DNA of 64,000 nucleotides from an uncultured Terracidiphilus sp. (GTDB lineage Bacteria; Acidobacteriota; Terriglobia; Terriglobales; Acidobacteriaceae): contig CAZMHC010000005.1 of NCBI GenBank assembly GCA_964565955.1, forward strand, positions 11,560 through 75,559, read 5' to 3'. Under the pieces are notes generated by a model. That model saw only the letters and a program-made list of their open reading frames with translations. It was not told the origin of the DNA and ran no database searches. Both the position numbers and the translations under genes were made by a program. This document shows, piece by piece, positions 16,222 through 57,703 of this stretch (positions within the stretch are counted from its first letter, which is position 1; every line of letters begins with the position of its first letter).

Positions 16222-17691
16222 TCACGGATTGAATGTAGCACAGGCAGCGGCGGAGCGCAAGCCGATTTTTTTGAAACGCCGAAATCCGGTGCTGAGTTGG
16301 CCGTTCAGGCGCGGAGGGACAGGGAATCTCAAGCCCGGCGAGGGTGTTTTTCGCGGCTGCGAATTCGACCGAGTCGTCAGGCCTCCCATCAGCAGAAGAT
16401 AGGGCAGAATCATCGCGCCATTGAGCAGATTGTCGAAGGCGAGCATGAGTATGACCGCCGCCAACGCCTGACGGATATCCGACTCGCCATGGTTGCCGTC
16501 CGAAGAAGACCAGGCTGCGCTGACGACGGGCAGAAACAAGATGGCCCCGAGCGCCAGCAGGCCAACCAGCCCATACATTCCAAGCGCCAGCAGCCACAGA
16601 CTCCAGGGCCGGAATTCGCCGCTTTGCCACCAATTCCATTGGCCGGAACCGAGGAGCGGGTAACGAAGCGCCAGCCTCATATCGCTCTCCTCGCGAGCCA
16701 ACCGCCAGGCGAGCGAATGCCGCCCCATTTTTGTCAGGGCGGTGAAGATGGAATGAGCCGCTCGATCGTTTTGCGCGAGGGCGCGCAGAGAAGTGCGGTC
16801 CATCATCTGGAACAACGCAAAGGCTACGATGCCGAGAACCAGGATGCCCACCGATGCGCGGAGGAAGACGCGGCGCCTGAGCAGGGCCAGCGGCAGCAGG
16901 AGCGCCAGCAGGAGAAGACTGCCGATCGACTGGCAGAGCAGCGTGGTGGCGGCTAACCCGGCCGCGCCCCATGCCGAGGGCAAGCCGAGGATGCGCGACG
17001 CGGAGCGGCGGACGGCGAGGAATATGGCAATAAGGGTGGCGGCCGCCATCCAAATGCCGAGTTGATTTCCGTCTTCGAGCAAACCGACGGGGCGAAAGCC
17101 GATGTACCGCTCGGCGCCCACCCAGCGGTACGGCTGATAGCCATAGATGAATGCGTAGAGATGCGGCCCGGCGCAAATTTCCGCGAGACAGATAGGCAGA
17201 TAGCAGACTGCGGCGACAACGAAGGCCTTGGCGGCCAGAAGCAGCGAATCGCTCTGGGAGAAGTAAATGCGTCCCAGCACCCAGGGCACACCCCAGGCGA
17301 CGGTCTGGTATGCGGCGCCCAAAAGTCCCTGCCGAAGCGTACTCCAATGCGTGGCCGCGGACAGAAGAGGGACAGCGCACCACAGAGCCATGGGGATGTC
17401 GCGGAGGCCGGGCCGGAATTTCTTCAAGTCGGCGGAGTGAAAGAAGATCGCTCCGGCCAGAGCGGCCAGGCCGATAACAGCGGCTTTGGTGAGAAGATAG
17501 TTGGTGGGGAGACAAACGCCGAGAATCCAATAGGGAAACCCGTCGGCTGAAGGCGCGTAGTTGGCGCCCGGCAGCACGGCCCATCCGCCGAGGAAATTGG
17601 CGAGAATCGCAATTCGCGCGGGATAGCGGCGGAAGAGATAGAAGCCAAGCGGAATCCAGCCGATGAGGGCGGCTATTGGGGGCAGTTGCAT
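16222..17691 (-). CDS. O-antigen ligase/polymerase (Wzy_C)-like multi-pass membrane protein
   Basis: About 490 aa from ATG 17691, with at least 10 predicted TM segments and a large loop. It resembles O-antigen-ligase-family proteins found at EPS loci. The family call rests on overall pattern only. Confidence 0.55.
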   Translation of the reverse strand: MQLPPIAALIGWIPLGFYLFRRYPARIAILANFLGGWAVLPGANYAPSADGFPYWILGVCLPTNYLLTKAAVIGLAALAGAIFFHSADLKKFRPGLRDIPMALWCAVPLLSAATHWSTLRQGLLGAAYQTVAWGVPWVLGRIYFSQSDSLLLAAKAFVVAAVCYLPICLAEICAGPHLYAFIYGYQPYRWVGAERYIGFRPVGLLEDGNQLGIWMAAATLIAIFLAVRRSASRILGLPSAWGAAGLAATTLLCQSIGSLLLLALLLPLALLRRRVFLRASVGILVLGIVAFALFQMMDRTSLRALAQNDRAAHSIFTALTKMGRHSLAWRLAREESDMRLALRYPLLGSGQWNWWQSGEFRPWSLWLLALGMYGLVGLLALGAILFLPVVSAAWSSSDGNHGESDIRQALAAVILMLAFDNLLNGAMILPYLLLMGGLTTRSNSQPRKTPSPGLRFPVPPRLNGQLSTGFRRFKKIGLRSAAACATFNP

Positions 17692-17806
17692 ATTTTTCCC
17701 TCGGCTCTTTCCTCGTCGGTTTCTCCATTGGGCCTGGATAATGAACGACAGCCAGGATAAACGAAGCCCGCGGCCATCATAACAGTCGCAACTCGCGGAC
17801 GGGGAG

Positions 17807-18685
17807 ATGAGGGATTGCATGAACGCTGTCTTGCCTCCGCGAAAGCTGCCGGCATCGGTGGTCGAAGTATGGCAGTTCGATCTCGATATGCGGTTGCATC
17901 CCGGAATCGATCTGGACAGTATCCTGTCGGTCGAGGAGCGCAGCCGCGCGGACCGCTACGTCTTTGCCCGCGATGCAAATCGTTTTCGGCTTTGTCGGGC
18001 AATGCTTCGGCTCGGTCTTGGCTGGTATTTGGGAGCGAATCCGCGAGAGCTGGCTCTGACAGTGAACGAGTACGGCAAACCGCGCCTGCGCGAATCGTCC
18101 GCCGCTCCGCACTTCAACGTGACGCATAGCGAGGGACTGGGGCTGATTGCGTTTACGGGAGTCGGGGAAGTTGGGATCGACGCGGAGGCGGTTCGGCGCG
18201 AAGTCGATGCTCTGGAGGTCGCTTCCGCCCACTTCACTGAACGCGAGGCGGCGATGGTGGCGGCGGCGATGCCGGAAGAACAGGCGGGAACCTTTCTGCG
18301 TCTGTGGACGAGGAAGGAGGCTGCGTTGAAGGCGGCCGGAGTTGGAATAGGGCGCGGCTTGAGCGCATTCGACGTGTCGCGAACGCCGGATAACTTGGCG
18401 CGGCTGAGCGGCGGGTCGGAAGGAAGCCATGAAACTTTATGGATGGTGAGGGACATGGAAGTTATCGACGGGTTCGTTGGGGCGGTTGCCGCCGCGGCGG
18501 GAGATTGGTCGATCCGGCAATGGCCCATTCGTTCCGAAGATGCGATCGACAGTTTGATAGCTCAATTCGATAAGTTGTTGCAATATGCGGCGCGGTCGCG
18601 GCCGCCGCGGCACAATGACCGCAACGGCAAAGGCGGCAAACTCCAGAGTATAAGTCGAGAAGCGGACGCGCCGCCGCTAACATAG
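17807..18685 (+). CDS. Sfp-type 4'-phosphopantetheinyl transferase
   Basis: PPTase motifs are FNVTHSEGLGLIAF, GIDAE and WTRKEAALKA. The start may be ATG 17819 instead. Confidence 0.85.
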   Translation: MRDCMNAVLPPRKLPASVVEVWQFDLDMRLHPGIDLDSILSVEERSRADRYVFARDANRFRLCRAMLRLGLGWYLGANPRELALTVNEYGKPRLRESSAAPHFNVTHSEGLGLIAFTGVGEVGIDAEAVRREVDALEVASAHFTEREAAMVAAAMPEEQAGTFLRLWTRKEAALKAAGVGIGRGLSAFDVSRTPDNLARLSGGSEGSHETLWMVRDMEVIDGFVGAVAAAAGDWSIRQWPIRSEDAIDSLIAQFDKLLQYAARSRPPRHNDRNGKGGKLQSISREADAPPLT

Positions 18686-19097: not shown

Positions 19098-19418
19098 GTG
19101 GCAGCGATCACTCAAGCGAAATGGAGAATCGGCGATGCGGAACACGGCATTCGTCACGATGGGGCGAAGGAGAGATGCATCTACCCCAATTTGAAATTGA
19201 GCATCTATACCGCGGGCATACGCCAGAATCAGTTAGCCAAGCAGCTGGGTATAGATGAGGGCTATCTGAGCAGGATACTCAACGGAGTTCGCGTACCTGG
19301 AGAGCAGATACAAGTTCAGATAGCGAACGCTTTGGGATGCGATGCGGAATGGCTGTTCAAACACACCACCGTCAAAGCTGTAGGACGCAAGTTTATGGAA
19401 GACGCAAAGATCGGTTAA
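19098..19418 (+). CDS. XRE-family helix-turn-helix transcriptional regulator
   Basis: The HTH reads IRQNQLAKQLGIDEGYLSRILNGVRVPG. GC content is visibly lower than in its neighbours. GTG start; the exact start is uncertain. Confidence 0.75.
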   Translation: MAAITQAKWRIGDAEHGIRHDGAKERCIYPNLKLSIYTAGIRQNQLAKQLGIDEGYLSRILNGVRVPGEQIQVQIANALGCDAEWLFKHTTVKAVGRKFMEDAKIG

Positions 19419-19583: not shown

Positions 19584-19828
19584 CCGATTCGATTTTCCGA
19601 TCGGCGCGATGCCCAAATCGGAGCAATTTCAATCCGACTTCGCATACGGAGCGGAATGTCGCCGGGTTAGCTGTACGCAGGGATGAACCCGGCATCAAAA
19701 GGAATTGCTATCGGTCTTCCGTTACTCATGGATGAACGGTTGCGTTTTCTCCGAACTGTCGGCGCAGCCGGAATCGGCTCATGCACACCCCCCAAGCCGC
19801 ATGACAGGTTAACCGAAAATGGACAGCG

Positions 19829-19860
19829 CTCGAATGTGAGTGACAGGGGCGAAGCCCGCT
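19829..19860 (+). repeat. Leader-region repeat, copy 2 (CTCGAATGTGAGTGACAGGGGCGAAGCCCGCT), 141 nt upstream of the NusG-paralog start
   Basis: See copy 1. Its 17-mer GACAGGGGCGAAGCCCG recurs exactly at 31842-31858. Confidence 0.8.
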
Positions 19861-20000
19861 TCAAACCTGACAGTGAAATGGGGATGGGACGGATTCATTT
19901 GTCGATGCCGCGGCCAGCGAGCTGCAAGCTCCCTCGCCGACCGTCAACCGTCCATATGGACAAAGCAAGGCCGAATTGTCAGCGCGTGTATGGAGGCGAA

Positions 20001-20612
20001 ATGGGCGCACACAGCCTTAACTCGAGTTTTCAGACCGGAAACAAGCAGGTTCCGGATGGTTTCAATCCGGCGTGGTATGCGGTGCAGACCGCCTACCGCT
20101 GCGAGCAGCGCGCGGCTACGAGTCTGACCGCGAAAGGGATTGCGACCTATCTTCCGCTGCTGCGGGAGGTTCACCAGTGGAAGGATCGCCGCAAGGTCGT
20201 GGAAGTGCCGGCCTTCAGCGGCTACCTGTTCGTTCAATACGAGCCCAGTTTGCGCAACCGTGTAAAGGTGTTGGAAACGAGCGGCATAGTTCGTCTGCTG
20301 GGGGGGAATCATGAGCCGAGCCCGGTCCCCGAAGTCGAGATCGAAGCGGTTCGGCGCACTCTGGACAGCAAGGCGCCGTGCGTCCGCTGCGACGCGCTTA
20401 CGCCGGGGACCGCGGTACGGGTCAAGTCCGGTCCGCTGGCCGGCGTTCAAGGGCGACTGGCGCGAATCAAGAACAGTTTCCGGCTGATCGTCACCATCTC
20501 GGTTTTTTCTCAAGCCATCTCGGCCGAGCTTGCCATGAACGACGTGGAAGCGGTCCACGATCGTTCCTCGCTTCAACATTCGGTTTGGGAGCAATCCGCT
20601 TTTGCGAGCTAA
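20001..20612 (+). CDS. Specialised NusG paralog (UpxY/LoaP/RfaH-like transcription antiterminator)
   Basis: ATG 20001 is preceded by GGAGG. The NGN domain reads WYAVQTAYRCEQRAATSL...PAFSGYLFV. The KOW motif reads GTAVRVKSGPLAGVQGRL. It is the first gene of the glycan locus. Confidence 0.85.
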   Translation: MGAHSLNSSFQTGNKQVPDGFNPAWYAVQTAYRCEQRAATSLTAKGIATYLPLLREVHQWKDRRKVVEVPAFSGYLFVQYEPSLRNRVKVLETSGIVRLLGGNHEPSPVPEVEIEAVRRTLDSKAPCVRCDALTPGTAVRVKSGPLAGVQGRLARIKNSFRLIVTISVFSQAISAELAMNDVEAVHDRSSLQHSVWEQSAFAS

Positions 20613-20712: not shown

Positions 20713-22047
20713 ATGCTGAAATCGAAAGCGCCTCGAGTAGCAATTCTAGGAGTGGCCGTCGACAACCTGACGATGGACGAAGTTCTGAACGCCGTCGAGG
20801 AGAAGATCGCGGAGGGCGGCTTCCATCAGATAGCAACGGCCAACGCGGACTTCCTCATCAAATCGATTCACGACGAGGAACTGTACGAAACCCTGACCCG
20901 CTGCGACCTGGTTCTGGCCGACGGAATGCCGCTTGTATGGGCATCGCGGCTGTTGGGAACGGGTCTGAAGGAGCGCGTCGCGGGAGCCGATTTGGTGCCT
21001 CAACTGGCAAGACTGTCTGCCCGGCGGGGTTACCGAATCTTTCTTCTGGGGGCGGATGAGGAGAGTTCCGCGGGCACGGCGGCGTGGATGGAGAGGAACT
21101 ATCCCGGCGTTCGCATTGCCGGCCGCTATTGCCCAAGGCATTCGCCTTTGGAGGAGATGGATCACGAGGAGATACTGTCGAGGATCGAGGAGGCTCGGCC
21201 GGACATACTTCTGGTGGCCTTTGGAAACCCCAAGCAGGAAAAATGGCTGACCATGCATCGGCAAAGGCTGGAGGTTCCCGTGTGCATCGGAGTCGGCGGC
21301 TCGTTCGACTTTTTGAGCGGGAAGACCTCGCGCGCGCCGAGCTGGATGCAGCATAGCGGGATGGAATGGCTGCATCGGACGATGCAAGATCCATCGCGGT
21401 TGGCGAAGCGCTATTTGAGCAACGCCGTGGGTCTTTTGCGCTATCTTCCGGTGCAGCTTGCGGCCATGGCCATGCAGGGGAAACCGCGTCAAGGGGCGCG
21501 GATTACGCGGGAGAGGATGGGCGCGACGACCGTTCTGAGCATAGCGGGAGATTTCACCGGGTCGTTGTTGCCGCGGTTCGAATCCGACGTTCGCAGCGCG
21601 GTGCTTTCCGGCTCTCACGTGGTGCTCGACATGAGCCAAACGGCATACATCGGAGCGGACGCGATCGCCTCTCTGATTTACGCGATGAATGTCACTCGCA
21701 GTTGGAAGCGGGAACTTTGGCTGGCGGGGCTGGATCGGTTTCTGGCTCTGGTGGTGGGCGCATCGCGGCTGCGGCTCTTCTTTCGCATGGCGCCGAAGGT
21801 TTCGGAGGCGTTGCGTCGCATCCAGCCGGAGTCGATGCCGGTTCCTCGGTTCGGCGAAGACTGGGCGTATTGCCGCATAGGCGGGCAGATGGTGCCGATT
21901 CACGTCCATGAAGTGCCGGATGTGTACCGTCAGGTAAGGCAAATGCTGCGTCGGGAGTTTGCGGTCGAGACGATTTCGGTCTTGTCGTCAAGCGGTCTGG
22001 ACAGGGACAAATTGATTCACGATTTGATTCCAGCCGATGCCAGATAA
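20713..22047 (+). CDS. WecB/TagA/CpsF-family (GT26) glycosyltransferase fused to a C-terminal STAS domain
   Basis: The N-terminal 250 aa carry ILGVAVDNLTMDEVL, ATANADFL, LADGMPLVWASRLLG, FGNPKQEKW and GVGGSFDFLSG. The C-terminal roughly 110 aa (TVLSIAGDFTG...VVLDMSQTAYIGADAIASLI...LAGL) have an anti-sigma-antagonist/STAS-like pattern. Confidence 0.85.
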   Translation: MLKSKAPRVAILGVAVDNLTMDEVLNAVEEKIAEGGFHQIATANADFLIKSIHDEELYETLTRCDLVLADGMPLVWASRLLGTGLKERVAGADLVPQLARLSARRGYRIFLLGADEESSAGTAAWMERNYPGVRIAGRYCPRHSPLEEMDHEEILSRIEEARPDILLVAFGNPKQEKWLTMHRQRLEVPVCIGVGGSFDFLSGKTSRAPSWMQHSGMEWLHRTMQDPSRLAKRYLSNAVGLLRYLPVQLAAMAMQGKPRQGARITRERMGATTVLSIAGDFTGSLLPRFESDVRSAVLSGSHVVLDMSQTAYIGADAIASLIYAMNVTRSWKRELWLAGLDRFLALVVGASRLRLFFRMAPKVSEALRRIQPESMPVPRFGEDWAYCRIGGQMVPIHVHEVPDVYRQVRQMLRREFAVETISVLSSSGLDRDKLIHDLIPADAR

Positions 22048-22146: not shown

Positions 22147-23340
22147 ATGCTTCCGCACCAATTGTTCGGTCTGTTCGGGTTGGTTCTGACGCTGGCGACG
22201 CTGCCGCTGGCGGTTGAATTGCTGGTTCTGACGGCGGCGGCTCTGTTGCCGGCGGCGCGATCGGGTTCGAAAGATCGAGCCGCCGGAGAAGAGGCGTTTC
22301 CGCTCACGGTTCTGGTTCCGGCTCACAATGAAGAGGCTCTGATCGGGCGCTGCGTTCGCGGCTTGACGGAGTCGGCGGGTTGCGGCGCGGAGGTGCTGGT
22401 GGTGGCGCACAACTGCACCGACGGGACGGCGGCGGAAGCGGAGGCCGCGGGAGCGCGGGTGCTGAAGCTGGACGATTTGGATCGGAAGGGCAAGGGGTGC
22501 GCGCTGCGTCATGGGTTTGCGGCGGCGCTAGCCGGGCCTTCGATGGCAGTGCTTGTGGTGGATGCGGATTCCGTGGTTTCCCCCGGCTTGATAGCGGCGG
22601 CGCGGGAGAGATTTCAGCGCGGGGCGCAGGCGCTGCAATGCCGTTATGAGGTGAACAATCCGCTGGGGAACCAGCGCACGGAACTGATGGCGCTTGCGTT
22701 TCAGGGGTTCAACGCGATCCGTCCACGCGGCCGCGAGCGACTTGGCCTCTCGGCGGGAATTTTGGGCAATGGCTTCGGGCTTCACCGGGAAGCGTTGACG
22801 CGGGTTCCATACGGAGCCAATTCGGTTGTCGAGGATCTGGAATATCACCTGGCTCTGGTTCGCGCCGGGATCCGCGTCGAGTTTGTCGATACGGAGGCGG
22901 TTCGCGGCGAGATGCCGGTTTCGGATCGCGGCGCGCGCACGCAGCGCGCTCGCTGGGAAGGCGGGCGTCAGCGCATGATGAGGCATTGGGCCCCGAAGCT
23001 GATGGGCGATGTGCTGCGCGGACGAGCGAGGCTGATCGAGCCGCTTCTCGATCTGCTGTCGGCGCCGATGGCCACAGAGGCAATTCTGTTGCTGGTTGCG
23101 GCCTGTCTGCCCGTTCCGTGGCTCAGGCTGTACGTTCTGGCAGTGTTACTGGTTCTGATCCTACACGTAACCGCCGCAGGTGCCAGCGGTTCCGGTTTTT
23201 GGCGAACGATGAGGGTTATGGCCGCCGTTCCGGGCTATATTGTATGGAAGATATGGATTCTGCCGGAGACATGGCGCGCTTCCCGCAAGGATTCCGCATG
23301 GGTGCGGACGGAGCGCGATTCGCCGGCGGACGCTCAGTGA
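22147..23340 (+). CDS. Membrane-embedded family-2 glycosyltransferase, synthase-like (D, DxD, ED, QxxRW)
   Basis: An N-terminal TM precedes VLVPAHNEE, VVDADS, VEDLEY and QRARW. Three or four TM segments follow at the C-terminus. Confidence 0.85.
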   Translation: MLPHQLFGLFGLVLTLATLPLAVELLVLTAAALLPAARSGSKDRAAGEEAFPLTVLVPAHNEEALIGRCVRGLTESAGCGAEVLVVAHNCTDGTAAEAEAAGARVLKLDDLDRKGKGCALRHGFAAALAGPSMAVLVVDADSVVSPGLIAAARERFQRGAQALQCRYEVNNPLGNQRTELMALAFQGFNAIRPRGRERLGLSAGILGNGFGLHREALTRVPYGANSVVEDLEYHLALVRAGIRVEFVDTEAVRGEMPVSDRGARTQRARWEGGRQRMMRHWAPKLMGDVLRGRARLIEPLLDLLSAPMATEAILLLVAACLPVPWLRLYVLAVLLVLILHVTAAGASGSGFWRTMRVMAAVPGYIVWKIWILPETWRASRKDSAWVRTERDSPADAQ

Positions 23341-24477: not shown

Positions 24478-24493
24478 CTTTGAAAGGTTGGAT

Positions 24494-50145: not shown

Positions 50146-51435
50146 ATGAGAATCTGCGTTGTTGCCGAGCACGCCTCGACACGCTTCGGCGGCGAAGCCA
50201 TCCTTCCCGTGCATTACTTTCGCCTGTTGCGGTCCCGCGGCATCGAGAGCTGGCTGGTCGCGCACACGCGAACGCGCGGCGAAGTGGAGGAGTTGTTCGC
50301 GGGGGACATCGACAGGCTTCTGTTCGTTCCCGACCTGTGGATTCAGAAGCTGTGCTTTCGTCTCGGCGGCTATCTGCCCAGGCGATTGGCGGAAGCCACG
50401 TTTGGGCTTTTCAACCAGATCGTTACACAATTCTGCCAGCGTGGAATCGTGCGCCGACTGATCCGCGAGCGCGGGATCGACGTGGTTCACCAGCCCATTC
50501 CGGTCGCTCCACGATTTCCTTCCCTGCTGTTCGGATTGGGCGTTCCCGTGGTGATCGGGCCGCTGAACGGCGGAATGGAATACCCGCCCGCGTTTCGCCG
50601 CTCCGAGGCATGGATCAGTCGCGCGGCGATCGCCGCGGGTCGGCTGTTTACGAATGCGGGCAACGCGCTGCTGCCGGGCAAGAAGTTCGCCAGCGTGGTG
50701 CTGGTGGCCAATGAACGTACGCGGCGGGCCTTGCCTTCGGGAATTCGCGGCAAGGTCGTCGAACTGGTGGAGAATGGGATCGACTTCGGCCTCTGGCAAG
50801 GCTCGTCCGACAATGTGGAGAGCGCGGTTCCTCGCTTTGTCTTCATCGGACGCCTGGTGGATTGGAAGGCTCTGGATATAGCGATTCGGGCTTTGGAGAA
50901 GGTTGCCTCCGCGGAACTCGAAGTCATCGGCGATGGCCCCATGTTGGAAACATGGCGATCGCTGGCGGGTGAACTTGGGGTGAAGCGCCGCGTTCATTTC
51001 GTGGGGTGGTTGACGCAGCGGGAGTGCGCCGATCGGTTGCGGGCCGCTGTCGCGCTGGTTTTGCCTAGCCTTTACGAGTGCGGGGGCGCCGTTGTGCTGG
51101 AGGCCATGGCCATGGGCAAGCCGGTGATAGCCACGGATTGGGGCGGTCCGGCGGATTATCTGGACGCCTCCTGCGGAATGCTGGTCGCGCCAACGAGCTA
51201 CGAAAGCCTGGTGGACGGATTCGCCGCGGCGATGCGCAAGACAATGGATTCTCCCGAACTGGCGAAGTCCATGGGCGCGGCGGGACGGGAACGGGCGATT
51301 CGCGATTTCGATTGGCAGCGGAAGATCGAGCGGGTCATCGGCATCTACCGTCTGCTTGCCGAAGAACCCGGCCTTCCCCAGGAATTCAAAGAAGAACCGG
51401 TTTCCGCGCCGGCGATTTCACAACGCAACTGCTGA
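50146..51435 (+). CDS. Glycosyltransferase family 4 (GT-B)
   Basis: MRICVVAEHASTRFGGEA at the N-terminus. The C-terminal signature is PSLYECGGAVVLEAMAMGKPVIATDWGGPADY. Confidence 0.85.
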   Translation: MRICVVAEHASTRFGGEAILPVHYFRLLRSRGIESWLVAHTRTRGEVEELFAGDIDRLLFVPDLWIQKLCFRLGGYLPRRLAEATFGLFNQIVTQFCQRGIVRRLIRERGIDVVHQPIPVAPRFPSLLFGLGVPVVIGPLNGGMEYPPAFRRSEAWISRAAIAAGRLFTNAGNALLPGKKFASVVLVANERTRRALPSGIRGKVVELVENGIDFGLWQGSSDNVESAVPRFVFIGRLVDWKALDIAIRALEKVASAELEVIGDGPMLETWRSLAGELGVKRRVHFVGWLTQRECADRLRAAVALVLPSLYECGGAVVLEAMAMGKPVIATDWGGPADYLDASCGMLVAPTSYESLVDGFAAAMRKTMDSPELAKSMGAAGRERAIRDFDWQRKIERVIGIYRLLAEEPGLPQEFKEEPVSAPAISQRNC

Positions 51436-51452: not shown

Positions 51453-52796
51453 ATGGAAGAGAGTTACCAAGACGCAAAGTCGCAAGCCGTGAGTCCAGCG
51501 CGGGCTCCGGATCGAGGATCGCGCCCGGATTCCGCGGCGGCCGAAGAGGTCTCGAAGGCGAAGGCCGGGAACGCTCCACGGCGGCTTCTCTATCTTCTGA
51601 GTTACTATCCGGCTATTTCGCACACCTTCTTTCTCAATGAAATTCTGGCGCTGAGAAAACAGGGTTTTGCCGTCGAGGCCGCCTCCATCAACCCCCCGGA
51701 CCGTCCGCGCGAGTCGATGTCCGAGACCGAGGCGCAAGAGGCGGAGAAGACGTTTTACGTCAAGTCCGCGGGAGCCGCGCGGGCGGCGGCGATTGCGGCA
51801 AAGACGCTGCTATTCAGGCCATGGGTCTTCGCTCACGGGCTGTTGGCCGCTCTCCAGTTGGGGCGAGGAGATTTCGGCGCAACTCTCTATGCGCTCTTTT
51901 ACCTCGCCGAGGCCCTGGTCCTGGGGGATTGGATGCGTTCGCGCGGTCATCGCCATCTGCATATCCACTTCTGCGGGCCGGTGGCAACGGTGGGTATGCT
52001 GACATCGATGGCATGGGGTTTCACTTATTCGCTGACCGTGCATGGCCCGGACGAATTCTACGACGTGGAGAAGTTTCACCTTCGCCGGAAGGTAGAGCGC
52101 GCGACGTTCATCCTGTGCATCAGCGACTTTTGCCGAAGCCAACTGATGCGCATCTCGGACCCGGAGCACTGGGACAAAATGGCGGTGGTGCGGCTGGGGG
52201 TCGATCCGAAGGTGTTCTTTCCGATGCGGCCGCCGGCCAGGACAGAGCATGATCTGGAAATCCTGTGCGTGGGCCGGTTGGTTCCGTCGAAGGGCCAGCT
52301 CATTCTCTTGCAAGCCTGCGGACTTCTGCGCACCGCGGGCCGCTCGTTCCGGGTGCGTCTGGTGGGCGATGGCCCGGACCGCAAGCATTTGCGGGCCTTC
52401 GCGGAAGAAAAGGGAATTCCGGCAATCTTCGAGGGAGCAAAGAGCCATGAAGAGACGCGGCAGTTGCTTGGGCAGGCGGATATCTTCGCCCTGGCCAGTT
52501 TTGCCGAGGGCGTCCCGGTGGCGTTGATGGAGGCCATGGCCATGGAGGTTCCCTGCGTGAGCACCCGCATTGCCGGAATTCCAGAGCTGATCCGCGACGG
52601 CCTCGACGGGCTGCTGGTTCCCGCGTCTTCGGCCGAGGCGCTGGCCTCGGCGCTCAGTCGTCTGGCTGAAGATGCGGCCTTGCGGCGCAGCTTTGGGATT
52701 GCCGGACGCAAGCGCGTCCTCGATCTCTACAATCTGCCGCAAAATGCAACTCTGCTGGCAGAAGCCTTTCGAGAGCGCGTCCCCACCGACCGCTAA
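51453..52796 (+). CDS. Glycosyltransferase family 4 (WcaL-like)
   Basis: ATG 51453. The N-terminus reads LLYLLSYYPAISHTFFLNEILALRKQGF. The C-terminal signature is ASFAEGVPVALMEAMAMEVPCVSTRIAGIPELI. The track ORF begins at 51078, inside the previous gene. Confidence 0.8.
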   Translation: MEESYQDAKSQAVSPARAPDRGSRPDSAAAEEVSKAKAGNAPRRLLYLLSYYPAISHTFFLNEILALRKQGFAVEAASINPPDRPRESMSETEAQEAEKTFYVKSAGAARAAAIAAKTLLFRPWVFAHGLLAALQLGRGDFGATLYALFYLAEALVLGDWMRSRGHRHLHIHFCGPVATVGMLTSMAWGFTYSLTVHGPDEFYDVEKFHLRRKVERATFILCISDFCRSQLMRISDPEHWDKMAVVRLGVDPKVFFPMRPPARTEHDLEILCVGRLVPSKGQLILLQACGLLRTAGRSFRVRLVGDGPDRKHLRAFAEEKGIPAIFEGAKSHEETRQLLGQADIFALASFAEGVPVALMEAMAMEVPCVSTRIAGIPELIRDGLDGLLVPASSAEALASALSRLAEDAALRRSFGIAGRKRVLDLYNLPQNATLLAEAFRERVPTDR

Positions 52797-52803
52797 GAGG
52801 ACT

Positions 52804-53808
52804 ATGAACGCTCAAGGTTCCGCATCTTTCCAGTTCGACGTCTCCATCGTGATTGTGTCCTTCAACACGCGCGACGTTTTGCGGGAATGCCTGCAATCGG
52901 TCTATCGCGAGGCGGGTTCGCTGAGCGTCCAGGTCGTTGTGGTGGACAACGCTTCGGCGGACGGCTCCGCCGCGATGGTCGAGCGCGAGTTTCCCGACGC
53001 GCTGTCGATACGCAGCGAGGTCAACCTCGGCTTCGGTCCGGCTAACAATCTCGGCTTCAAGTCCGCGAACGGACGTTATATTGTGCTTCTCAATTCCGAC
53101 GCTTTTCTGAGCGAGGGATCGCTCCAACGCTCGGTGGCGCATATGGACGCGAACCCCCGCGCGGGACTTGGCGGCGGACGTCTGATCGGTCGCGACGGCT
53201 CTTGGCAACCATCGGCGCGGATGTTTCCCACAGTCTTCACCGACCTGCTTGTCCTTTCCGGGCTTGCGGCGCGCTTTCCGCGATCGCGCTTTTTTGGGCG
53301 CGCGGACCGCACCTGGGCCGATCAAATGCAGGCCGCCGAGGTGGACTGGGTTCCCGGCGCGTACTCGATTCTGCGCGCCGAGGCGCTGCGAGCAGTCGGG
53401 GCCTTCGACCCGCGCTTTTTCCTGTACTACGAGGAAGTAGACCTTTGCAGACGCATCAAGAACCGAGGATTCTCGATCTGGTATTGGCCGGATATCGTAG
53501 TCGTGCATATCGGCGGCGAGTCCTCGCGTCAGGTTCAGTCGCTGCAACTCTCGCAAACCGGGGCGCAGCTCACTCTCTGGCGTATGCGCAGCATGCTGCT
53601 CTACTATCGAAAACATCATGGATTGTCCGCATGGTGCTCCCTGGCCGCCGAGGCCGGCTGGTATTGGCTGCGGTCGCAGCGCAGACGATGGAGCAAGGAG
53701 CCGGAGAGGCGCGCAAGCGTCAGCGCCGACCGGCGCCTGATAGCGATCTTGAATCAGGCGTGGCGCGATACCATGGGAGGACGCTTTTCCCCCGCCCAGC
53801 CCTGGTGA
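52804..53808 (+). CDS. Glycosyltransferase family 2 (rhamnosyltransferase-like)
   Basis: ATG 52804. Motifs are VSIVIVSFNTRDVL, VVVDNASADGS, LLNSDAF and EEVDLCRR. Confidence 0.85.
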   Translation: MNAQGSASFQFDVSIVIVSFNTRDVLRECLQSVYREAGSLSVQVVVVDNASADGSAAMVEREFPDALSIRSEVNLGFGPANNLGFKSANGRYIVLLNSDAFLSEGSLQRSVAHMDANPRAGLGGGRLIGRDGSWQPSARMFPTVFTDLLVLSGLAARFPRSRFFGRADRTWADQMQAAEVDWVPGAYSILRAEALRAVGAFDPRFFLYYEEVDLCRRIKNRGFSIWYWPDIVVVHIGGESSRQVQSLQLSQTGAQLTLWRMRSMLLYYRKHHGLSAWCSLAAEAGWYWLRSQRRRWSKEPERRASVSADRRLIAILNQAWRDTMGGRFSPAQPW

Positions 53809-53832: not shown

Positions 53833-54447
53833 ATGGATATGCCGGATAACTCGTTGCGCCGCCAACTTAAGTCGTCGCTTGCATCGCTGTTGTCGTCGTT
53901 CTACAGGGCAACCTCCGGTCTGCGCCGGAACCTGGGGCGCATCCGCAATCATGCCTTGCTTTCTTCCAGCCTTGACGCGCCTCTCGATGCGTCGGTCGTG
54001 GTGCTGGGGCGGGCCGAAGTGCACGGCACGGGCAAGATTCGCATTGGACGGGACGCTCTCCTGTATCCCGCGCTGTATCTGGAGACTCTGGAGAATGGAG
54101 CGATCGAGATCGGCGACGGCGTCGTGCTCTCGCGCGGGGTTCACATTGTCTCGTTCGACCGGATTGCGATCGGCAATGGCACCATGATCGGCGAGTACTC
54201 CAGCATTCGCGACGCGAACCACGCCCGGGTGCCGGGTTTGCCGATCCGCGAGTCCGGACACATCGCCCGACCTATCGTCATCGGCAATGAGGTGTGGATC
54301 GGTCGCGGCGTAACCGTGCTGGGCGGCGTCGCCATCGGGGACGGCGCCACGGTGGGGGCCAATGCGGTGGTCACCCGCGATGTGCCGGCCGGAGTTACAG
54401 TCGCGGGAGTGCCCGCGCGGGCGATCGGCGCCGGCCAGGCGCGTTGA
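53833..54447 (+). CDS. Hexapeptide-repeat (LbH) acetyltransferase
   Basis: Repeats read IGDGVVLSRGVHIV, IGNEVWIGRGVTVLGGVAIGDGATVGANAVV and AGVPAR. Confidence 0.8.
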   Translation: MDMPDNSLRRQLKSSLASLLSSFYRATSGLRRNLGRIRNHALLSSSLDAPLDASVVVLGRAEVHGTGKIRIGRDALLYPALYLETLENGAIEIGDGVVLSRGVHIVSFDRIAIGNGTMIGEYSSIRDANHARVPGLPIRESGHIARPIVIGNEVWIGRGVTVLGGVAIGDGATVGANAVVTRDVPAGVTVAGVPARAIGAGQAR

Positions 54448-54493: not shown

Positions 54494-56047
54494 ATGGAAG
54501 TTGCGGGTAACTCGAGGAACAGCCCGCGCACGGCGCGGCATTTTGGTTTCTTCTTAGCCGCGTTCGCCGCAATCTACCTTCTTTCCTGGCCGATTCTATT
54601 CTCACTGGACCTTTGGATACTGAAGGATCGCGGCAGTTTTCTCAATCTGGATTGCCTGCTGGACGAGCGTCTCCGGCTGGGTGTCGATACCTTCTATTCC
54701 TACGGACTGCTGCCGGTTTCCATCCAGCATTGGCTCTTTGCCCTGTTTGGCAGAGGCTATTGGCCGTCGATCGGATGCGCGGTCGTCACACTGGCGTTGA
54801 TGGCCCTGTTCTGCGCTCTCTTTCTGCGCTATCTGCCCAGGGAATCCGTTTGGCTTGTGGCGCTGCTGGCAATGAGCCGGATCGTCAACCCGGTCAATCC
54901 CAATCTCCCCTATTCTCTCGTCCAGCTATCCCTTCTCTTTGCGCTGCTCTTCGTCCTGATGGGAAGGCTGGACATGGGTCTGGCTATCTCCACGATAGGC
55001 TGTTGGAGCGTGCCGTCTTTGCCTCTGGTTATGACGGCTTTGTTGGCCGCATTCCTGTTTCTCGATTGGATCGTCAAGCCTCCCCGCTCCCTTTCGAGAT
55101 TGTTTCGTATGCTTGCGCCGGGGGTATCGACCTATATCGCGCTCGCAATTCTTTTGGCTTGCCAATTCGGGTGGCGTTCCGTCTTCGCAACCGCGACTCC
55201 TTTGGCGGGGATGGGCTTCTACAAGCAGATCGACTACGGCTCCGGACAAGGGTTGATGCAGTTTCTGCACCCCTGGGGATACAGTTGGTTTCGCTATCTC
55301 GCCTACGCTCTATTTACCCCGGTAAGTTGGTGGGTCTTTTGCACCTTGAGCCTCGCCGTCTTCGCTGTGCTGGCGGCGCGAAGAATGGCGATTCGGAGAA
55401 CGATGGACGGCAGAGATGCGGCGATCGTTCTCTGCGCGCTGATCCAGGGAGCGTTCGTGTGCTTTGCCTACGGAGCGCCGCACCAACACTATCTCTTCGA
55501 TCCGATCCTGATAGTGGGTATGTTGCTCGGGTTATCGGCTGTCGAGTCTGGATTCGCGCGCAAGGTTCTGTTGGCGATCTTTGTGGTTCTCGGAATCGCG
55601 GGCCAGGCGACCCTTGCGCGCGACGCCTGGAAGAGCTGGAAAGAAATCAAGTCGCCGACAGCGACCGCCAATCTATACGCCGATGCGGGCTGGGTGGCCG
55701 AATGGAAGAATATCCTGGAGCTGTCAACCCATCGGAACTTGCTTCTCTTCTCTTATAGCACCGGAGTCCATAACTATTTTCCGAGCGTTCATTCGCCGGA
55801 TATATGGACGCTCCAGTTGGGACAGCTTCTTCCCGCCGACAAGGCGCGCGTGATGCAACAGTTCGACGAGGCCGATGCGGTGGTGCTGGACCTGACCAGC
55901 CCGACTGCCCTGGTGGATAAGGATGCCGACATTCAGCGGCATTTGCATTCTCTCTGTCTGACGCAATCCACGACCTATTTTCAGGTCTGGCGGCGGCGAT
56001 CGTCGCCGCCCGCAAACTTGGCGTGCCTCGCCGATCCGCGAAGATAG
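54494..56047 (+). CDS. Polytopic membrane protein, function unknown (candidate polymerase or GT-C-like enzyme)
   Basis: 517 aa with about 11-12 hydrophobic segments followed by a soluble tail of about 130 aa. No motif I can assign confidently. Confidence 0.5.
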   Translation: MEVAGNSRNSPRTARHFGFFLAAFAAIYLLSWPILFSLDLWILKDRGSFLNLDCLLDERLRLGVDTFYSYGLLPVSIQHWLFALFGRGYWPSIGCAVVTLALMALFCALFLRYLPRESVWLVALLAMSRIVNPVNPNLPYSLVQLSLLFALLFVLMGRLDMGLAISTIGCWSVPSLPLVMTALLAAFLFLDWIVKPPRSLSRLFRMLAPGVSTYIALAILLACQFGWRSVFATATPLAGMGFYKQIDYGSGQGLMQFLHPWGYSWFRYLAYALFTPVSWWVFCTLSLAVFAVLAARRMAIRRTMDGRDAAIVLCALIQGAFVCFAYGAPHQHYLFDPILIVGMLLGLSAVESGFARKVLLAIFVVLGIAGQATLARDAWKSWKEIKSPTATANLYADAGWVAEWKNILELSTHRNLLLFSYSTGVHNYFPSVHSPDIWTLQLGQLLPADKARVMQQFDEADAVVLDLTSPTALVDKDADIQRHLHSLCLTQSTTYFQVWRRRSSPPANLACLADPRR

Positions 56048-56076
56048 AGCGTTGACGATAGTATATTCAGAAGACC

Positions 56077-56667
56077 GTGAGGCTGAGTTTGTTCGATAAC
56101 ATCCGCGAGGACTGGCGCACCTATGATCGTCAACTCTCCCGCCAGGGGCTGTGGGCCATGGCTGTGTACCGCTTTGGCCGCTGGCGCTACACCATTCGCC
56201 GGCGCTGGCTGCGTATGCCTTTCTCCTTTGTCTATAAGGTGCTGAAGCCTGTCTCCGAGGCGCTGACAGGCATCGAGCTTCCCTGCGAGGCAACCTTGGG
56301 CCGACGATTCCGAATCGATCATTTCGGGGGAATTGTCATCAGTGGCGATGCCGTCTTCGGAGACGACTGCGTGATTCGCAATGGGGTCACCGTGGGGCTG
56401 AGGCATACCGGCCAGCGCGGCGCGCCGATTCTGGGCAACCGCGTGGATATTGGCGCCGGAGCCAAGATTCTGGGCGCGATCCGGATCGGGGACAATGTGG
56501 CGATAGGAGCCAACGCCGTGGTGCTCGCCGATGTGCCGTCCAATTGCATTGCCGTCGGGGTTCCGGCGCGGGTGATTCCACGAAAATCTCCGACACCGGC
56601 AACAAGCGAGGAGCCGGTACATACCGAAGGGACGCAAGAGCGGGGTGTTCATGCCGGAAGCATCTGA
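56077..56667 (+). CDS. Serine O-acetyltransferase-like (CysE/EpsC-type LbH) acetyltransferase
   Basis: The N-terminus reads DNIREDWRTY...AVYRFGRW. The LbH core reads GRRFRIDHFGGIVISGDAVFGDDCVIRNGVTVG...GNRVDIGAGAKILGAIRIGDNVAIGANAVV. Confidence 0.8.
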   Translation: MRLSLFDNIREDWRTYDRQLSRQGLWAMAVYRFGRWRYTIRRRWLRMPFSFVYKVLKPVSEALTGIELPCEATLGRRFRIDHFGGIVISGDAVFGDDCVIRNGVTVGLRHTGQRGAPILGNRVDIGAGAKILGAIRIGDNVAIGANAVVLADVPSNCIAVGVPARVIPRKSPTPATSEEPVHTEGTQERGVHAGSI

Positions 56668-57703
56668 AAGCGTTGCCGGTCGTTGCGCGGACGCTGTTGC
56701 GCCCTCGCTTTCGATCGTAGTGATCGGACGCAATGAGGGGCCGCGACTGGCCGCCTGCCTTGAGTCCATTCAGAGGGTGCGAGGCATTGACGTGAAGGAG
56801 ACGATCTACGTCGATTCCGCCTCCACCGACGGCAGCCGGGAACTGGCCTCCCGCTATGGCGCAACCGTGATCGAGGTTCACCCGGAGCGGCCCACCGCGG
56901 CCATCGGTCGCAACGCCGGTTGGCGGCGCGCGGCATCCGATCTGATTCTCTTTCTCGACGGAGATACCGTATTGCACCCGGATTTTGTTCAGGCAGCGTG
57001 CGACGCAATGTCAGGGGAGTCGTCTCTTGCGGCCGTGTGGGGCCATCGCCGCGAAATACACCCGGAAGCATCGGTCTATAACCGCATCCTCGACCTCGAC
57101 TGGATTTATCCTCCCGGCCTTGCGGAGTTTTGCGGCGGCGACGTGTTGATGCGCCGCGAGGTTCTGCTGGAAACGGGAGGATTCGACGAGAGGTTGATCG
57201 CCGGAGAAGAGCCTGAGCTTTGCCGGCGCATCAGAGCGCGGGGATACGGGATTCTGCACATCGACTGCCCCATGACCGGACACGATTTGCAGATAACTCG
57301 TTGGAGTCAATACTGGAAGCGCGCCACGCGGGCCGGCCATGCCTATGCCGAGGTTTCCGAACGCTTCCGCAAGAGCGACGACCCGTTCTGGACCGCCGAC
57401 CGCAGACGAAACCTGCTGCGCGGAAGCTTCTGGCTGGTTTCGCCGGCTGCCGCGATCGCGGCCAGTTTGCTTTTTGGAGTTGTTCCCATGGCCCTCTGGC
57501 TTGCCGCGCTGTTGCTGCTGTCCGCGCGGTCGGCGTGGAAGGCTCGCTGGAAGCGCGCTACTCCCGGCATCCTGTTGCTCTATGGACTTCACTCTCACCT
57601 GCAACAGGCGCCGATCTTCGTGGGACAACTGCAATATGAACTGAACAAGCGGCTGAAAAGAACGCGCAAACTGATCGAATACAAGCAGAGGCGCGCCGAC
57701 TGA
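56651..57703 (+). CDS. Glycosyltransferase family 2 with C-terminal TM segments
   Basis: Motifs are LSIVVIGRNEGPRLAACLESI, YVDSASTDGS, FLDGDT and GEEPELCRR. Two C-terminal TM helices are present. ATG 56651; the track uses GTG 56645. Confidence 0.85.
   Translation: MPEASESVAGRCADAVAPSLSIVVIGRNEGPRLAACLESIQRVRGIDVKETIYVDSASTDGSRELASRYGATVIEVHPERPTAAIGRNAGWRRAASDLILFLDGDTVLHPDFVQAACDAMSGESSLAAVWGHRREIHPEASVYNRILDLDWIYPPGLAEFCGGDVLMRREVLLETGGFDERLIAGEEPELCRRIRARGYGILHIDCPMTGHDLQITRWSQYWKRATRAGHAYAEVSERFRKSDDPFWTADRRRNLLRGSFWLVSPAAAIAASLLFGVVPMALWLAALLLLSARSAWKARWKRATPGILLLYGLHSHLQQAPIFVGQLQYELNKRLKRTRKLIEYKQRRAD

Follow-up and report, generated by a model that had tools for sequence, protein, structure and literature searches.

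An NRPS-PKS assembly line within an Acidobacteriaceae exopolysaccharide operon and its possible role in decorating the exported glycan

The polyketide synthases (PKSs) WcbR and RkpA are located within capsule gene clusters (PMC3908369), and in Roseovarius, Wzx and Wzz lie on either side of a PKS-GT-NRPS-PPTase cluster conserved among roseobacters. In the light of these systems, the suggestion in the first-pass annotation that the locus studied here is without a described precedent was overstated. Located at 16.2-57.7 kb of a 64,000-nucleotide stretch of an uncultured Terracidiphilus genome (hereafter, the window), this locus interleaves a complete thiotemplate set with a Wzx glycan pathway that resembles Myxococcus EPS. 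The domain content, called by Pfam and NCBIfam profile searches, agrees with the original annotation apart from the corrections given below. The locus is a genuine chimeric operon of ~38 kb with an UpxY-type NusG paralogue at its head. NusG paralogues are known drivers of polysaccharide and also of polyketide operons.

The glycan genes lie on the plus strand unless stated otherwise. An XRE-type HTH regulator (19098..19418; HTH_3 domain), whose position is shared with L086, stands ahead of the NusG paralogue (19683..20612, real start probably near 19980), a specialised antiterminator of the UpxY family (NF033644, 122 bits with the cut-off at 100; NusG domain) that heads every backbone variant; both genes were absent from the first-pass annotation. 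From the NusG paralogue, the first part of the backbone runs through a WecG/TagA-family glycosyltransferase that carries a fused STAS domain (20713..22047; EpsA-like, 2220 homologues), an EpsU-like membrane GT2 (22147..23340), the outer-membrane polysaccharide export protein Wza/OPX (23422..24477; Poly_export and SLBB domains) and a PCP/Wzc-like co-polymerase (24464..26644; TM segments at 55-73 and 445-463). The last of these starts at 24464 rather than at 24494 as first annotated, and its matches to the EpsF, eps_transp_fam and tyrosine-kinase models are all under the cut-offs. The second part comprises a priming polyprenyl-phosphate hexose-1-phosphate transferase of the EpsZ/WbaP class (30188..31708; Bac_transf and CoA_binding_3; TIGR03025, 412 bits with the cut-off at 296), the Wzx/MOP flippase (35063..36490; Polysacc_synt_3, 1.2e-45; 11 TM-like segments), a GT-A enzyme (49186..50139), GT4 enzymes (33636..34967, which varies among relatives, 50146..51435 and 51453..52796), GT2 enzymes (52804..53808 and 56645..57703) and the three LbH (hexapeptide) acyltransferases already annotated (33095..33715; 53833..54447, WbbJ/WcaF-like; 56077..56667, EpsC/CysE-like). 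The 56645 GT2 is the final gene, and convergent AKR/ADH/trpE genes adjoin the locus end after it.

The proteins originally called Wzy/ligase-like are better described as candidates. The polytopic product of 16222..17820 (minus strand, true start probably near 17690) has at least seven TM-like segments and matches Wzy_C weakly as a possible O-antigen ligase (E 0.0033, below the cut-off), with a 52% homologue among the glycan genes of L089. The product of 54494..56047, a Wzy-polymerase candidate with ~10 predicted TM segments, matched no family in profile searches, and its gene is replaced in some relatives. For ORF 49186, previously unassigned, the AF2 model (pLDDT 84) was matched by Foldseek to XXYLT1, LARGE1, ABO transferases and glycogenin, with E values as low as 6e-9, and D114-P115-D116 is invariant; the modelled fold is that of a GT8/GT6-like, retaining-type GT-A glycosyltransferase, and the gene, present also in the NRPS-less operon L092, belongs to the backbone. 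The glycosyltransferase count, previously eight or nine, comes to eight: seven by Pfam (20713, 22147, 33636, 50146, 51453, 52804 and 56645) plus 49186.

The thiotemplate genes are interleaved with the glycan pathway at four separate places. At the first, upstream of the NusG paralogue, lies the Sfp/HetI-type 4'-phosphopantetheinyl transferase (PPTase; 17807..18685, plus strand; ACPS and AASDHPPT_N domains, HetI-like), which is found in standalone clusters and L086 as well. The second, after the PCP and ahead of the priming transferase, holds three genes: a membrane-anchored PAF-AH/esterase-like alpha/beta hydrolase with N-terminal TM segments (26729..28123, plus strand), which accompanies the NRPS-PKS in standalone and integrated loci alike; a cupin protein with an HxD...H motif and weak cupin profile matches only (28124..29170, plus strand; probable Fe/2OG oxygenase), which accompanies the assembly line in L016, L018, L022, L051 and L064; and a type II thioesterase (TEII; 29215..30012, minus strand; Thioesterase domain 2.8e-47, GHSMG motif). 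A second cupin, a JmjC/Cupin_8-type oxygenase paralogous to 28124 (32095..33009, plus strand), lies between the priming transferase and Wzx. The assembly line itself occupies the place between Wzx and the GT-A gene, all on the plus strand: a stand-alone A-T loading module (36555..38513; threonine code DFWNIGMVHK), a KS-AT(malonyl)-ACP-AMT-C-A(Gly)-T megasynthase (38510..46567; code DILQLGVIWK; motifs C-H-H, GHSLG/HAFH, YGK and HHIVLDG) and a C-T-TE terminal module (46567..49170; HHSVCDG, LGGQSL and GYSYG). While the relatives have C-A(Gly)-T-TE as terminal module, that of our locus is without an A domain.

The Stachelhaus codes for Thr and Gly are canonical, and those of the locus match them at 10/10 (Thr) and 9/10 (Gly) positions and are conserved across relatives; the third A domain, where relatives have one, also carries a Gly code. 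We predict from these codes and motifs a Thr starter with one malonyl extension and β-amination, followed by Gly-Gly. The A-T module would load Thr, one malonyl unit would extend it, and transamination of the β-keto group would yield a 3,4-diamino-5-hydroxyhexanoyl unit, to which a Gly and then a second Gly, loaded in trans on the A-less T domain, would be added; a possible further step is hydroxylation by the two cupin oxygenases.

Direct reading of the junctions agreed with their earlier description. The Wzx stop (36490) and the A-T ATG (36555) are 64 nt apart, with an alternative GTG at 36507; an ATGA overlap (38510-38513) joins A-T to the megasynthase, a stop/start overlap (46565-46569) joins the megasynthase to C-T-TE, and 15 nt including GGAGAAAGG separate C-T-TE from 49186. 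Gaps of 6 nt (49186 to 50146), 17 nt (50146 to 51453) and 7 nt (51453 to 52804) follow. Terminator-like matches were at chance level across the search, with none within the junctions. In correction of the first-pass annotation, the plus-strand gene run is broken at TEII because this gene is on the minus strand; as the priming transferase is also followed by a gap of 386 nt that contains a perfect hairpin, one single transcript is not assured.

Synteny bears out the linkage. The Wzx-to-A-T and TE-to-GT-A-to-GT4 junctions are kept in ~13 species-level Terracidiphilus genomes at 65-90% identity, as well as in the divergent metagenome contigs L088, L089 and L090 (terminal module 49-64% identical), and synteny extends to L086. 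The integrated Terracidiphilus genomes belong to uncultured peat-bog Acidobacteria. These comparisons support a genuine linkage, with tight coupling that has been stable in evolution. That the locus arose by chimeric assembly, or that it is a relic in decay, is barely conceivable: we found no point in favour of this, the same arrangement appears in independent JGI, ENA and NCBI assemblies and is kept in many MAGs, every thiotemplate catalytic motif is intact on inspection, and GC3 is high throughout the coding frames.

Linkage is, however, only partly general. A compact orthologous PPTase/A-T/PKS-NRPS/C-T-TE/hydrolase/cupin cluster is found in Tunturiibacter psychrotolerans, Edaphobacter and L064 (sister clade) and in Acidoferrum (outgroup), and in none of the four does a glycan gene lie closer than 10 kb; the assembly line can therefore work alone. 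In the KS-AT tree the integrated clade is sister to the standalone clade, with the standalone L022 outside both, and integration into the EPS operon is therefore derived: a once-standalone NRPS-PKS cluster has entered the variable region of an EPS operon that is conserved in Acidobacteriaceae, with TEII and the second cupin as the sole gains.

These standalone orthologues lend weight to a different reading, and a distinctly possible one, namely that the product is a free, secreted Thr-derived diamino-acyl-Gly-Gly metabolite, co-transcribed with EPS and never joined to the glycan. The cassette would borrow the EPS promoter and antiterminator, the paralogue being matched by both the UpxY and LoaP models, and the compound, released through TE hydrolysis, might serve as antimetabolite, metal ligand or signal. 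In line with this, the TE motif is an ordinary GxSxG, the L092 backbone works without the cassette and integration brought no recognisable coupling transferase: Pfam and NCBIfam scans of the locus did not detect any MBOAT/DltB, AlmG-like or ATP-grasp protein for peptide-to-glycan transfer. The first-pass annotation held an independent metabolite to be less likely; we regard it as a serious rival. What this reading accounts for poorly is the dispersal of the thiotemplate genes over four positions instead of one block, the persistence of overlapping or 6-17-nt junctions down to 49% identity, the lack of a dedicated small-molecule exporter in the integrated locus and the glycan-acylation-type carrier-protein cassettes of sister operons described below. 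A second, independent linkage also speaks against it: in L051, a delta-proteobacterial MAG, a homologous line (Thr-KS-AT...AMT-Gly-Gly-Gly) has PGT-RR-GT2-LbH-WecG immediately upstream. It is unlikely that the product is attached elsewhere in the envelope, for example to lipid A/LPS core, to a lipoprotein or to an S-layer glycan, instead of to the polymer of this operon, with the membrane-anchored hydrolase as transferase. The constant company of this TM-bearing hydrolase would fit, standalone clusters could serve the same function with no need of linked glycan genes, and the Gly-Gly terminus resembles the glycine or diglycine that AlmEFG adds to Vibrio cholerae lipid A (PMC4278540); yet the locus lacks any transferase of the AlmG/LpxL or DltB type, and the specific, repeated insertion into an EPS operon would be left unexplained.

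Our preferred reading, to which we assign a probability of roughly 0.45, is that the exported polysaccharide carries the peptide, which would be small, polar and cationic, as a covalent substituent that is optional and varies between strains. The terminal T/TE would give up the peptide to a hydroxyl or amine group of a sugar; the transfer might be made by the TE, by one of the LbH acyltransferases or by the membrane-anchored hydrolase. Enzymes of the LpxA/LpxD-type LbH family use acyl-carrier-protein donors, and the Pks13 TE moves its product onto trehalose. Of the roles first suggested, glycan decoration is favoured by the stable linkage and by sister cassettes, while the standalone clusters and the lack of a dedicated transferase count against it; 'building block' and 'anchor' fare worse. 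An obligatory primer, anchor or backbone unit is very improbable, being suggested by the tight coupling to Wzx and glycosyltransferases alone: L092 keeps the Wzc-PGT-Wzx-GT-A-GT4 order with no thiotemplate gene, its orthologous Wzx (73%) being followed directly by GT-A (75%), the locus has a normal Und-P priming transferase, and no lipid moiety is predicted in the product, A1 being an amino-acid A domain and not a fatty acyl-AMP ligase (FAAL).

Since Wzx identity to that of the locus is near-equal in the NRPS-less L092 and in the integrated L020 (74%), there is no sign of the flippase adapting to a peptide-bearing substrate. At equivalent positions, sister operons hold glycan-acylation-type carrier-protein cassettes: SDR-ACP-ligase-LuxE-LuxC in L091, and an ACP and PEP-type hydrolases in L093 and L084, with an AMP-ligase in L093 too. 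Together with the cassette-free L092, this indicates that the NRPS-PKS behaves as an optional, swappable cassette, and the sister cassettes are consistent with a glycan-modifying role. The place of the NRPS-PKS in the EPS operon suggests, short of proof, that a secreted sugar polymer bears a peptide made by an assembly line. In the GT-A tree L092 is nested within the integrated lineage. The L084 and L093 priming transferases also fall within this lineage, a pattern that corresponds to cassette swapping as seen in capsule serotype loci.

With ORFs picked under GC3 guidance and domains assigned by Pfam and NCBIfam scans, the gene list of the first-pass annotation, which had claimed an NRPS-PKS line coupled into a Wzx/Wzy exopolysaccharide (EPS) operon, was borne out nearly item by item. 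A tRNA-Cys gene (15592–15667, minus strand) lies directly to the left of the locus. The left part of the locus holds a polytopic membrane protein (16222–17820, minus strand), an Sfp/HetI-type PPTase with an ACPS domain (17807), an XRE-type HTH gene (19098), a UpxY-family NusG paralogue (19683; NF033644 at 122 bits, above the cut-off of 100), a WecG/TagA glycosyltransferase (GT) fused to STAS (20713), a membrane GT2 (22147), the OPX protein Wza (23422; Poly_export and SLBB), a protein with the topology of a Wzc-like co-polymerase (PCP; 24464) whose model matches are all below cut-offs and whose kinase part is weak, and a membrane-anchored PAF-AH/esterase-like hydrolase (26729). There follow a cupin with an HxD...H motif (28124), a type II thioesterase (TEII; 29215, minus strand, GHSMG), an EPS-type priming transferase (PGT; 30188) in which Bac_transf and CoA_binding_3 domains are found (TIGR03025 at 412 bits, above the cut-off of 296), a JmjC/Cupin_8 protein (32095), an LbH acyltransferase (33095), a GT4 (33636) and the MOP-family flippase Wzx (35063; Polysacc_synt_3, 1.2e-45; about 11 TM segments). 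The thiotemplate line comes next, as A-T (36555), the megasynthase KS-AT-ACP-AMT-C-A-T (38510) and C-T-TE (46567), and then a 317-aa ORF with no family match (49186), directly followed by GT4, GT4, GT2 and LbH genes in that order, a 10-TM protein (54494), and finally LbH and GT2 genes up to the end of the locus at 57703. Convergent AKR, ADH and trpE genes bound it on the right. Of the Wzx/Wzy pathway, the PGT, the flippase and the OPX and PCP pair are present, and for the Wzy polymerase there are two polytopic candidates, 16222, with a sub-threshold Wzy_C match (E 0.0033), and 54494, without a family. The glycan proteins match the NCBIfam models EpsZ, EpsA, EpsU, EpsV, EpsY and EpsC, all below equivalog cut-offs. 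Elsewhere in the window, and unrelated to the locus, are a CofD (2-phospho-L-lactate transferase) gene (3883–4977, plus strand) and a MoxR-type AAA_3 ATPase with DUF4350 and DUF4129 partners (6376–10132, minus strand).

Direct reading of the sequence upheld the operon-type junctions listed in the first-pass annotation: 64 nt separate the Wzx stop codon from the ATG of A-T, an ATGA overlap is found at 38510 and a stop/start overlap at 46565–46569, 15 nt containing GGAGAAAGG separate C-T-TE from ORF 49186, and the junctions further right have gaps of 6, 17, 7, 24, 46 and 29 nt plus one 23-nt overlap. The specialised NusG paralogue sits at the 5′ end, as it does in four homologous loci (L084, L086, L091 and L093). 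This is a real, conserved, tightly packed operon headed by a NusG-paralogue gene. Three caveats apply to the junctions: TEII lies on the opposite strand, and the PGT is preceded by a 175-nt gap and followed by a 386-nt gap (31709–32094), which holds a perfect 10+10 palindrome (31718–31737) and an element of about 130 nt, single-copy within the window, with 26-nt inverted arms (31895–31920 and 31999–32024) and GC-rich inner hairpins; an attenuator, a region with an internal promoter or a MITE-like insertion are conceivable identities for it. Simple terminator matches equalled the shuffled expectation, with none in any junction, and the promoter scan was likewise at chance level, such scans being uninformative for an acidobacterium. 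A gathering-threshold Rfam scan of the window returned the tRNA-Cys alone and no leader RNA family.

The catalytic motifs of the thiotemplate line are all present as judged by inspection: the Cys-His-His of the KS, GHSLG and HAFH of a malonyl-type AT, the YGK motif with the PLP lysine in the AMT (Aminotran_3, 3.4e-50, between ACP and C), HHIVLDG and HHSVCDG in the C domains, GYSYG in the TE, and four carrier serines in IGGTSL, LGLDSL, LGADSL and LGGQSL. This domain order with a class III PLP aminotransferase domain is the McyE/MycA-type module layout, the product being predicted. Specificity residues taken from the A4-A5-A10 motifs give DFWNIGMVHK for the stand-alone A domain (A1) and DILQLGVIWK for the megasynthase A domain (A2), which agree at 10/10 and 9/10 positions with the canonical Stachelhaus-type Thr and Gly codes, respectively. 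Colinearity is incomplete, the terminal module C-T-TE having no A domain of its own and its C and T lying only about 60 residues apart. In close relatives this module comes in two forms, C-T-TE (about 867 aa) and C-A(Gly)-T-TE (about 1350 aa), the latter in the orthologues of L088 (10001–14056) and L090 (10001–14083); the A domain was lost or gained within the lineage. Since the orthologous terminal modules carry a Gly-coded A domain, the simplest inference is that the carrier of the window's terminal module (T3) would be loaded with Gly in trans. The predicted skeleton is then Thr extended by one malonyl unit and transaminated at the beta-keto group, a 3,4-diamino-5-hydroxyhexanoyl unit, followed by Gly-Gly, and the two cupin oxygenases may hydroxylate it. 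A lipopeptide or glycopeptidolipid is out: A1 is an amino-acid A domain (TIGR01733 above cut-off) with a perfect Thr code and therefore no fatty acyl-AMP ligase (FAAL), and there is a single malonyl extension. The specificity code also rules out a Gly-activating A1, suggested by its best PDB match, the Gly module of LgrA.

By exact sequence matches the window is assigned to JGI and ENA peat metagenome contigs. A megasynthase scan of species-representative genomes, with the loci found then compared by tblastn with all window proteins, yielded full-length megasynthase relatives at 77–83% identity in about 13 Terracidiphilus/Acidobacteriaceae MAGs, many from SPRUCE or other bogs, at 57–59% in Tunturiibacter psychrotolerans X4BP1, which is in culture and has a complete chromosome sequence, in an Edaphobacter MAG and in a further Acidobacteriaceae MAG, at 48% in Candidatus Acidoferrum and at 42–54% in many other phyla. 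Wherever the contig is long enough, the Terracidiphilus loci have the order cupin-TEII-PGT-Cupin8-Wzx-A-T-megasynthase-C-T-TE-317aa-GT4-GT4-GT2-LbH-(10-TM)-LbH-GT2, with proteins 65–90% identical. Further loci keep parts of the same order: L086 reads PPTase-HTH-NusG-WecG-GT2-Wza-PCP-hydrolase-cupin-TEII(minus strand)-Cupin8-Wzx in a different chromosomal neighbourhood, L088 reads A-T-megasynthase-C-A-T-TE-318aa-GT4-GT4-GT2-LbH-LbH-GT2, L089 reads Wzx-A-T-megasynthase-C-T-TE-PGT, and L090 reads Wzx-A-T-KS|AT...T-C-A-T-TE-331aa-GT4..., its terminal module being 49% identical to the window's. Because the same junctions recur in Terracidiphilus genomes and in distant homologues, the linkage goes well beyond chance, and an assembly artefact is excluded. 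The left flanks of L086 (gltB, G6PD, GH15) are quite unlike those of the window and a tRNA-Cys adjoins the locus, so the whole EPS/thiotemplate locus may be island-like.

Homologues of the WecG-STAS protein number more than 2000, and the contexts of four of them (63–70% identity) share the head NusG paralogue-WecG-STAS-GT2-Wza-PCP and vary in what follows. In L092, which lacks thiotemplate genes, the head is followed by PGT-279aa-Wzx-311aa-GT4; this Wzx shares 73% identity with that of the window, and the 311-aa protein shares 75% with the 317-aa ORF. The 12.7 kb of A-T, megasynthase and C-T-TE in the window sit exactly between two genes that are adjacent in L092, and the trio of hydrolase, cupin and TEII separates PCP from PGT, which are adjacent there too. 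L091 (5257–21335) carries SDR-ACP-AMP-ligase-LuxE-LuxC-methyltransferase after the PCP and an exosortase E/CAAX-protease gene upstream. In L093 (16304–21335) and L084 (17318–21335) the PGT is accompanied by a haem-oxygenase-like gene. To these L093 adds a pair of hydrolases with a weak likeness to exosortase-A-associated hydr1/hydr2, a small ORF of ACP size and an AMP-ligase, and in L084 a small ACP is encoded upstream of the PGT. By analogy, this is the pattern expected of capsule and O-antigen loci, with conserved export and regulatory genes around a middle that determines structure and can be exchanged. The thiotemplate genes are part of this exchangeable portion, in which carrier-protein chemistry is recurrent, and the gene order of L092 indicates that the EPS backbone can work without the cassette.

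ORF 49186 (49186–50139), which adjoins the TE, has no family match and is conserved more than any other gene, was considered as a peptide-glycan coupler. It has 1351 homologues, the best 120 of which are 72–84% identical and unannotated throughout; PDB sequence searches with it and with the cupin 28124 gave nothing usable. An AlphaFold model built from 33 sequences (pLDDT 84, pTM 0.83) matches the retaining GT-A enzymes XXYLT1, LARGE1, ABO transferases and glycogenin, with E down to 6e-9, and a D-P-D motif at 114–116 is invariant in the alignment. Judged by the modelled fold, 49186 is the eighth glycosyltransferase of the locus. The coupler reading was rejected on its GT-A fold and its presence in the NRPS-less L092, and the L092 homologue makes it a backbone gene.

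The line also exists on its own. Tunturiibacter (L018), Edaphobacter (L016), L064 and Acidoferrum (L022) have a standalone compact cluster of PPTase (minus strand), A-T, megasynthase, C-T-TE, hydrolase (minus strand) and cupin (minus strand). No glycan gene turned up when the flanks of L018 and L022 were scanned with Pfam; these flanks hold a RiPP-type MbnB/TglH enzyme, AhpC, DoxX and an ECF sigma factor, together with aldo-keto reductases, sigma-54 activators, a GGDEF protein and a CmlA-like hydroxylase. In L018 the MbnB/TglH-family RiPP-modifying enzyme adjoins AhpC, DoxX and the ECF sigma factor (4648–8036) just upstream of the standalone NRPS-PKS. In L022 (8309–23935) the A1 code is Val-like (DALWLGGTFK) and the A2 code Thr, a CmlA-type diiron beta-hydroxylase is present and the terminal protein is longer (1335 aa); its product is probably different from the window's. 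In a neighbour-joining tree of the KS-AT region the integrated loci, in which the line lies inside the EPS operon, form one clade, sister to the standalone L064, L016 and L018, with the standalone L022 outside both. On this topology, the most parsimonious account has an EPS operon acquiring a self-sufficient cluster a single time, by insertion into the variable region of its backbone. In other gene trees, the NRPS-less L092 nests between the integrated L088 and the Terracidiphilus crown (317-aa protein), and L084 and L093 nest inside the integrated clade (PGT).

What the product does can be read in several ways. The reading we prefer, with a probability of roughly 0.45, is that the peptide would be an optional substituent of the exported polymer. 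This is suggested by the interleaving of thiotemplate and glycan genes at four sites, by the retention of this interleaving down to about 49% identity, by comparable carrier-protein cassettes occupying this place in sister operons, and by a second linkage in the delta-proteobacterial MAG locus L051 (94–22948). There, a small PGT, a response regulator, an EpsU-like GT2, an LbH and a WecG GT, on one strand with short gaps, lie directly upstream of a longer homologous line with ACP-AMT-C-A-T, further Gly modules (three Gly), a cupin and a Thr-coded A-T-KS-AT; WecG and GT2 pairs also adjoin related synthases in an Acidimicrobiia MAG and in Methylobacterium. Three observations count against a substituent: standalone relatives exist, Wzx has diverged no more in cassette-bearing than in cassette-free loci, and no dedicated transferase was found, neither a DltB MBOAT/DltD nor an AlmG LpxL-like enzyme being among the ORFs of 16–58 kb. 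The peptide could instead be transferred by the TE, an LbH acyltransferase or the membrane-anchored hydrolase; the TE of Pks13 passes its product to trehalose, a precedent for transfer to sugar by a TE, and LpxA and LpxD take acyl-ACP donors, a precedent for transfer by an LbH protein. In its full form, which we put forward tentatively, a Thr-derived vicinal-diamino-acyl-Gly-Gly group would be joined covalently to the Wzx-exported repeat unit directly from the line, with release by transfer to sugar instead of hydrolysis, the genes acting as a swappable ‘serotype’ cassette of a capsule-like locus in dominant peat Acidobacteria.

The standalone clusters are also the chief reason why a co-transcribed free metabolite, not joined to the polymer, stays a strong rival, rated a little below the substituent. 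The first-pass annotation had named NRPS-PKS genes unlinked from glycan genes in relatives as evidence against its own claim, and such genes are what the standalone relatives have, the integrated loci keeping the linkage. That the product decorates some other envelope target seems improbable to us. It is also unlikely to be an obligatory primer or anchor: the L092 backbone has no thiotemplate gene and the priming enzyme is of the ordinary Und-P type.

A full-text literature search, in which absence is no proof of absence, returned no account of NRPS/PKS genes in a Wzx/EPS operon and nothing relevant on Acidobacteria/Terracidiphilus BGCs or V. cholerae tetronate genes. The first-pass annotation listed partial precedents and knew of no Wza/Wzc/Wzx/Wzy locus with such a line inside the operon. 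The parts do have precedents: a thiotemplate-type supply of substituents to surface glycopolymers is of a known kind (Dlt, AlmEFG, V. cholerae O1 tetronate) and PKS genes are known from capsule clusters (WcbR/RkpA, PMC3908369). Undescribed in the literature searched is a multimodular Thr-malonyl-AMT-Gly-Gly line as a cassette of a Wzx-type EPS operon with a UpxY-like antiterminator in abundant peat Acidobacteria. Were the covalent link true, a Wzx/Wzy polysaccharide would here for the first time be decorated from a multimodular NRPS-PKS template, which would place cationic groups on the matrix polymer of an abundant soil lineage. Terracidiphilus-like Acidobacteria recur in the peat-bog MAG collections matched (SPRUCE, ‘bog’ isolates), and their exopolymers are thought to shape peat chemistry; a cationic peptide substituent, if present, would alter polymer charge, metal and humic binding and resistance to degradation. 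Polysaccharide operons, it appears, can take up whole assembly lines as variable cassettes, and for natural-product mining a cluster scored as ordinary ‘NRPS-PKS’ may belong to a cell-surface pathway. The delta-proteobacterial locus and a roseobacter cluster (Wzx-PKS-GT2-NRPS-PPTase-Wzz) suggest a theme wider than one genus. Product identification is approachable in the cultured T. psychrotolerans X4BP1, where the same line is standalone.

Among known systems, the McyE/MycA-type hybrid modules of microcystin and iturin-family synthetases are beta-amino-forming KS-AT-ACP-AMT-C-A-T enzymes, and the window shares their domain order and logic of ketide extension, beta-keto transamination and amino-acid condensation; it differs in its starter, Thr on a stand-alone A-T and not a long polyketide or fatty acid, in its tiny, polar predicted product and in its polysaccharide-operon context. 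DltABCD D-alanylates teichoic acids with DltB/DltD as the transferase. AlmEFG places glycine or diglycine on V. cholerae lipid A (PMC4278540). As in both, an A enzyme and a carrier would supply an aminoacyl group for a surface glycopolymer, DltA models match A1, and the predicted Gly-Gly terminus is similar; whereas Dlt and Alm have a single A enzyme and carrier with DltB/DltD or AlmG, the window's line is multimodular, with KS, AMT, two C domains and TE. A further comparison is with the carrier-protein cassettes of O-antigen and PEP-CTERM EPS loci, such as the ACP, ligase and LuxE/LuxC-like tetronate genes of V. cholerae O1 and the exosortase-A-associated ligase and hydrolases (TIGR03098/03100/03101): sister backbones carry such cassettes at the thiotemplate position, although they make simple acyl groups and the L091/L093 matches are below family cut-offs.

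WcbR/RkpA clusters export by a Kps/ABC-type route and not by Wzx. In Burkholderia, Rhizobium and Nitrosomonas these type I PKSs lie within capsular polysaccharide clusters and are mono-modular, FAS-like reducing enzymes thought to make lipid (PMC3908369). The window likewise has a type I PKS among polysaccharide biosynthesis and export genes but, unlike their KS-AT-DH-ER-KR-ACP without NRPS, lacks DH, ER and KR and has NRPS modules. A PKS-glycosyltransferase-NRPS-PPTase cluster long known to be conserved in roseobacters (Martens et al. 2007, as cited in PMC5014874) still had no known product in 2016 (PMC5014874). In Roseovarius sp. MBR-78 (L061, 8496–23993) it reads Wzx-PKS(KS-AT-KR-DH-ACP-TE)-GT2-NRPS(formyltransferase-A[monooxygenase insert]-T)-PPTase-Wzz with overlapping junctions, and clusters of this type are also found at L067, L075, L080 and L081. 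There, too, a thiotemplate line is coupled into Wzx/Wzz genes, but domain architecture and phylum differ and the KS-AT region is only about 45% identical to the window's. Finally, the backbone resembles the Wzx/Wzy EPS system of Myxococcus xanthus, whose PGT, WecG-type GT, membrane GT2, PCP, OPX and CysE-like LbH are best or near-best matches, though every match of the PGT and the others to the Myxococcus EPS models is under the equivalog cut-off, and a Wzx is present; unlike it, the window's operon has a UpxY-type NusG head, STAS on its WecG GT and an embedded thiotemplate line.
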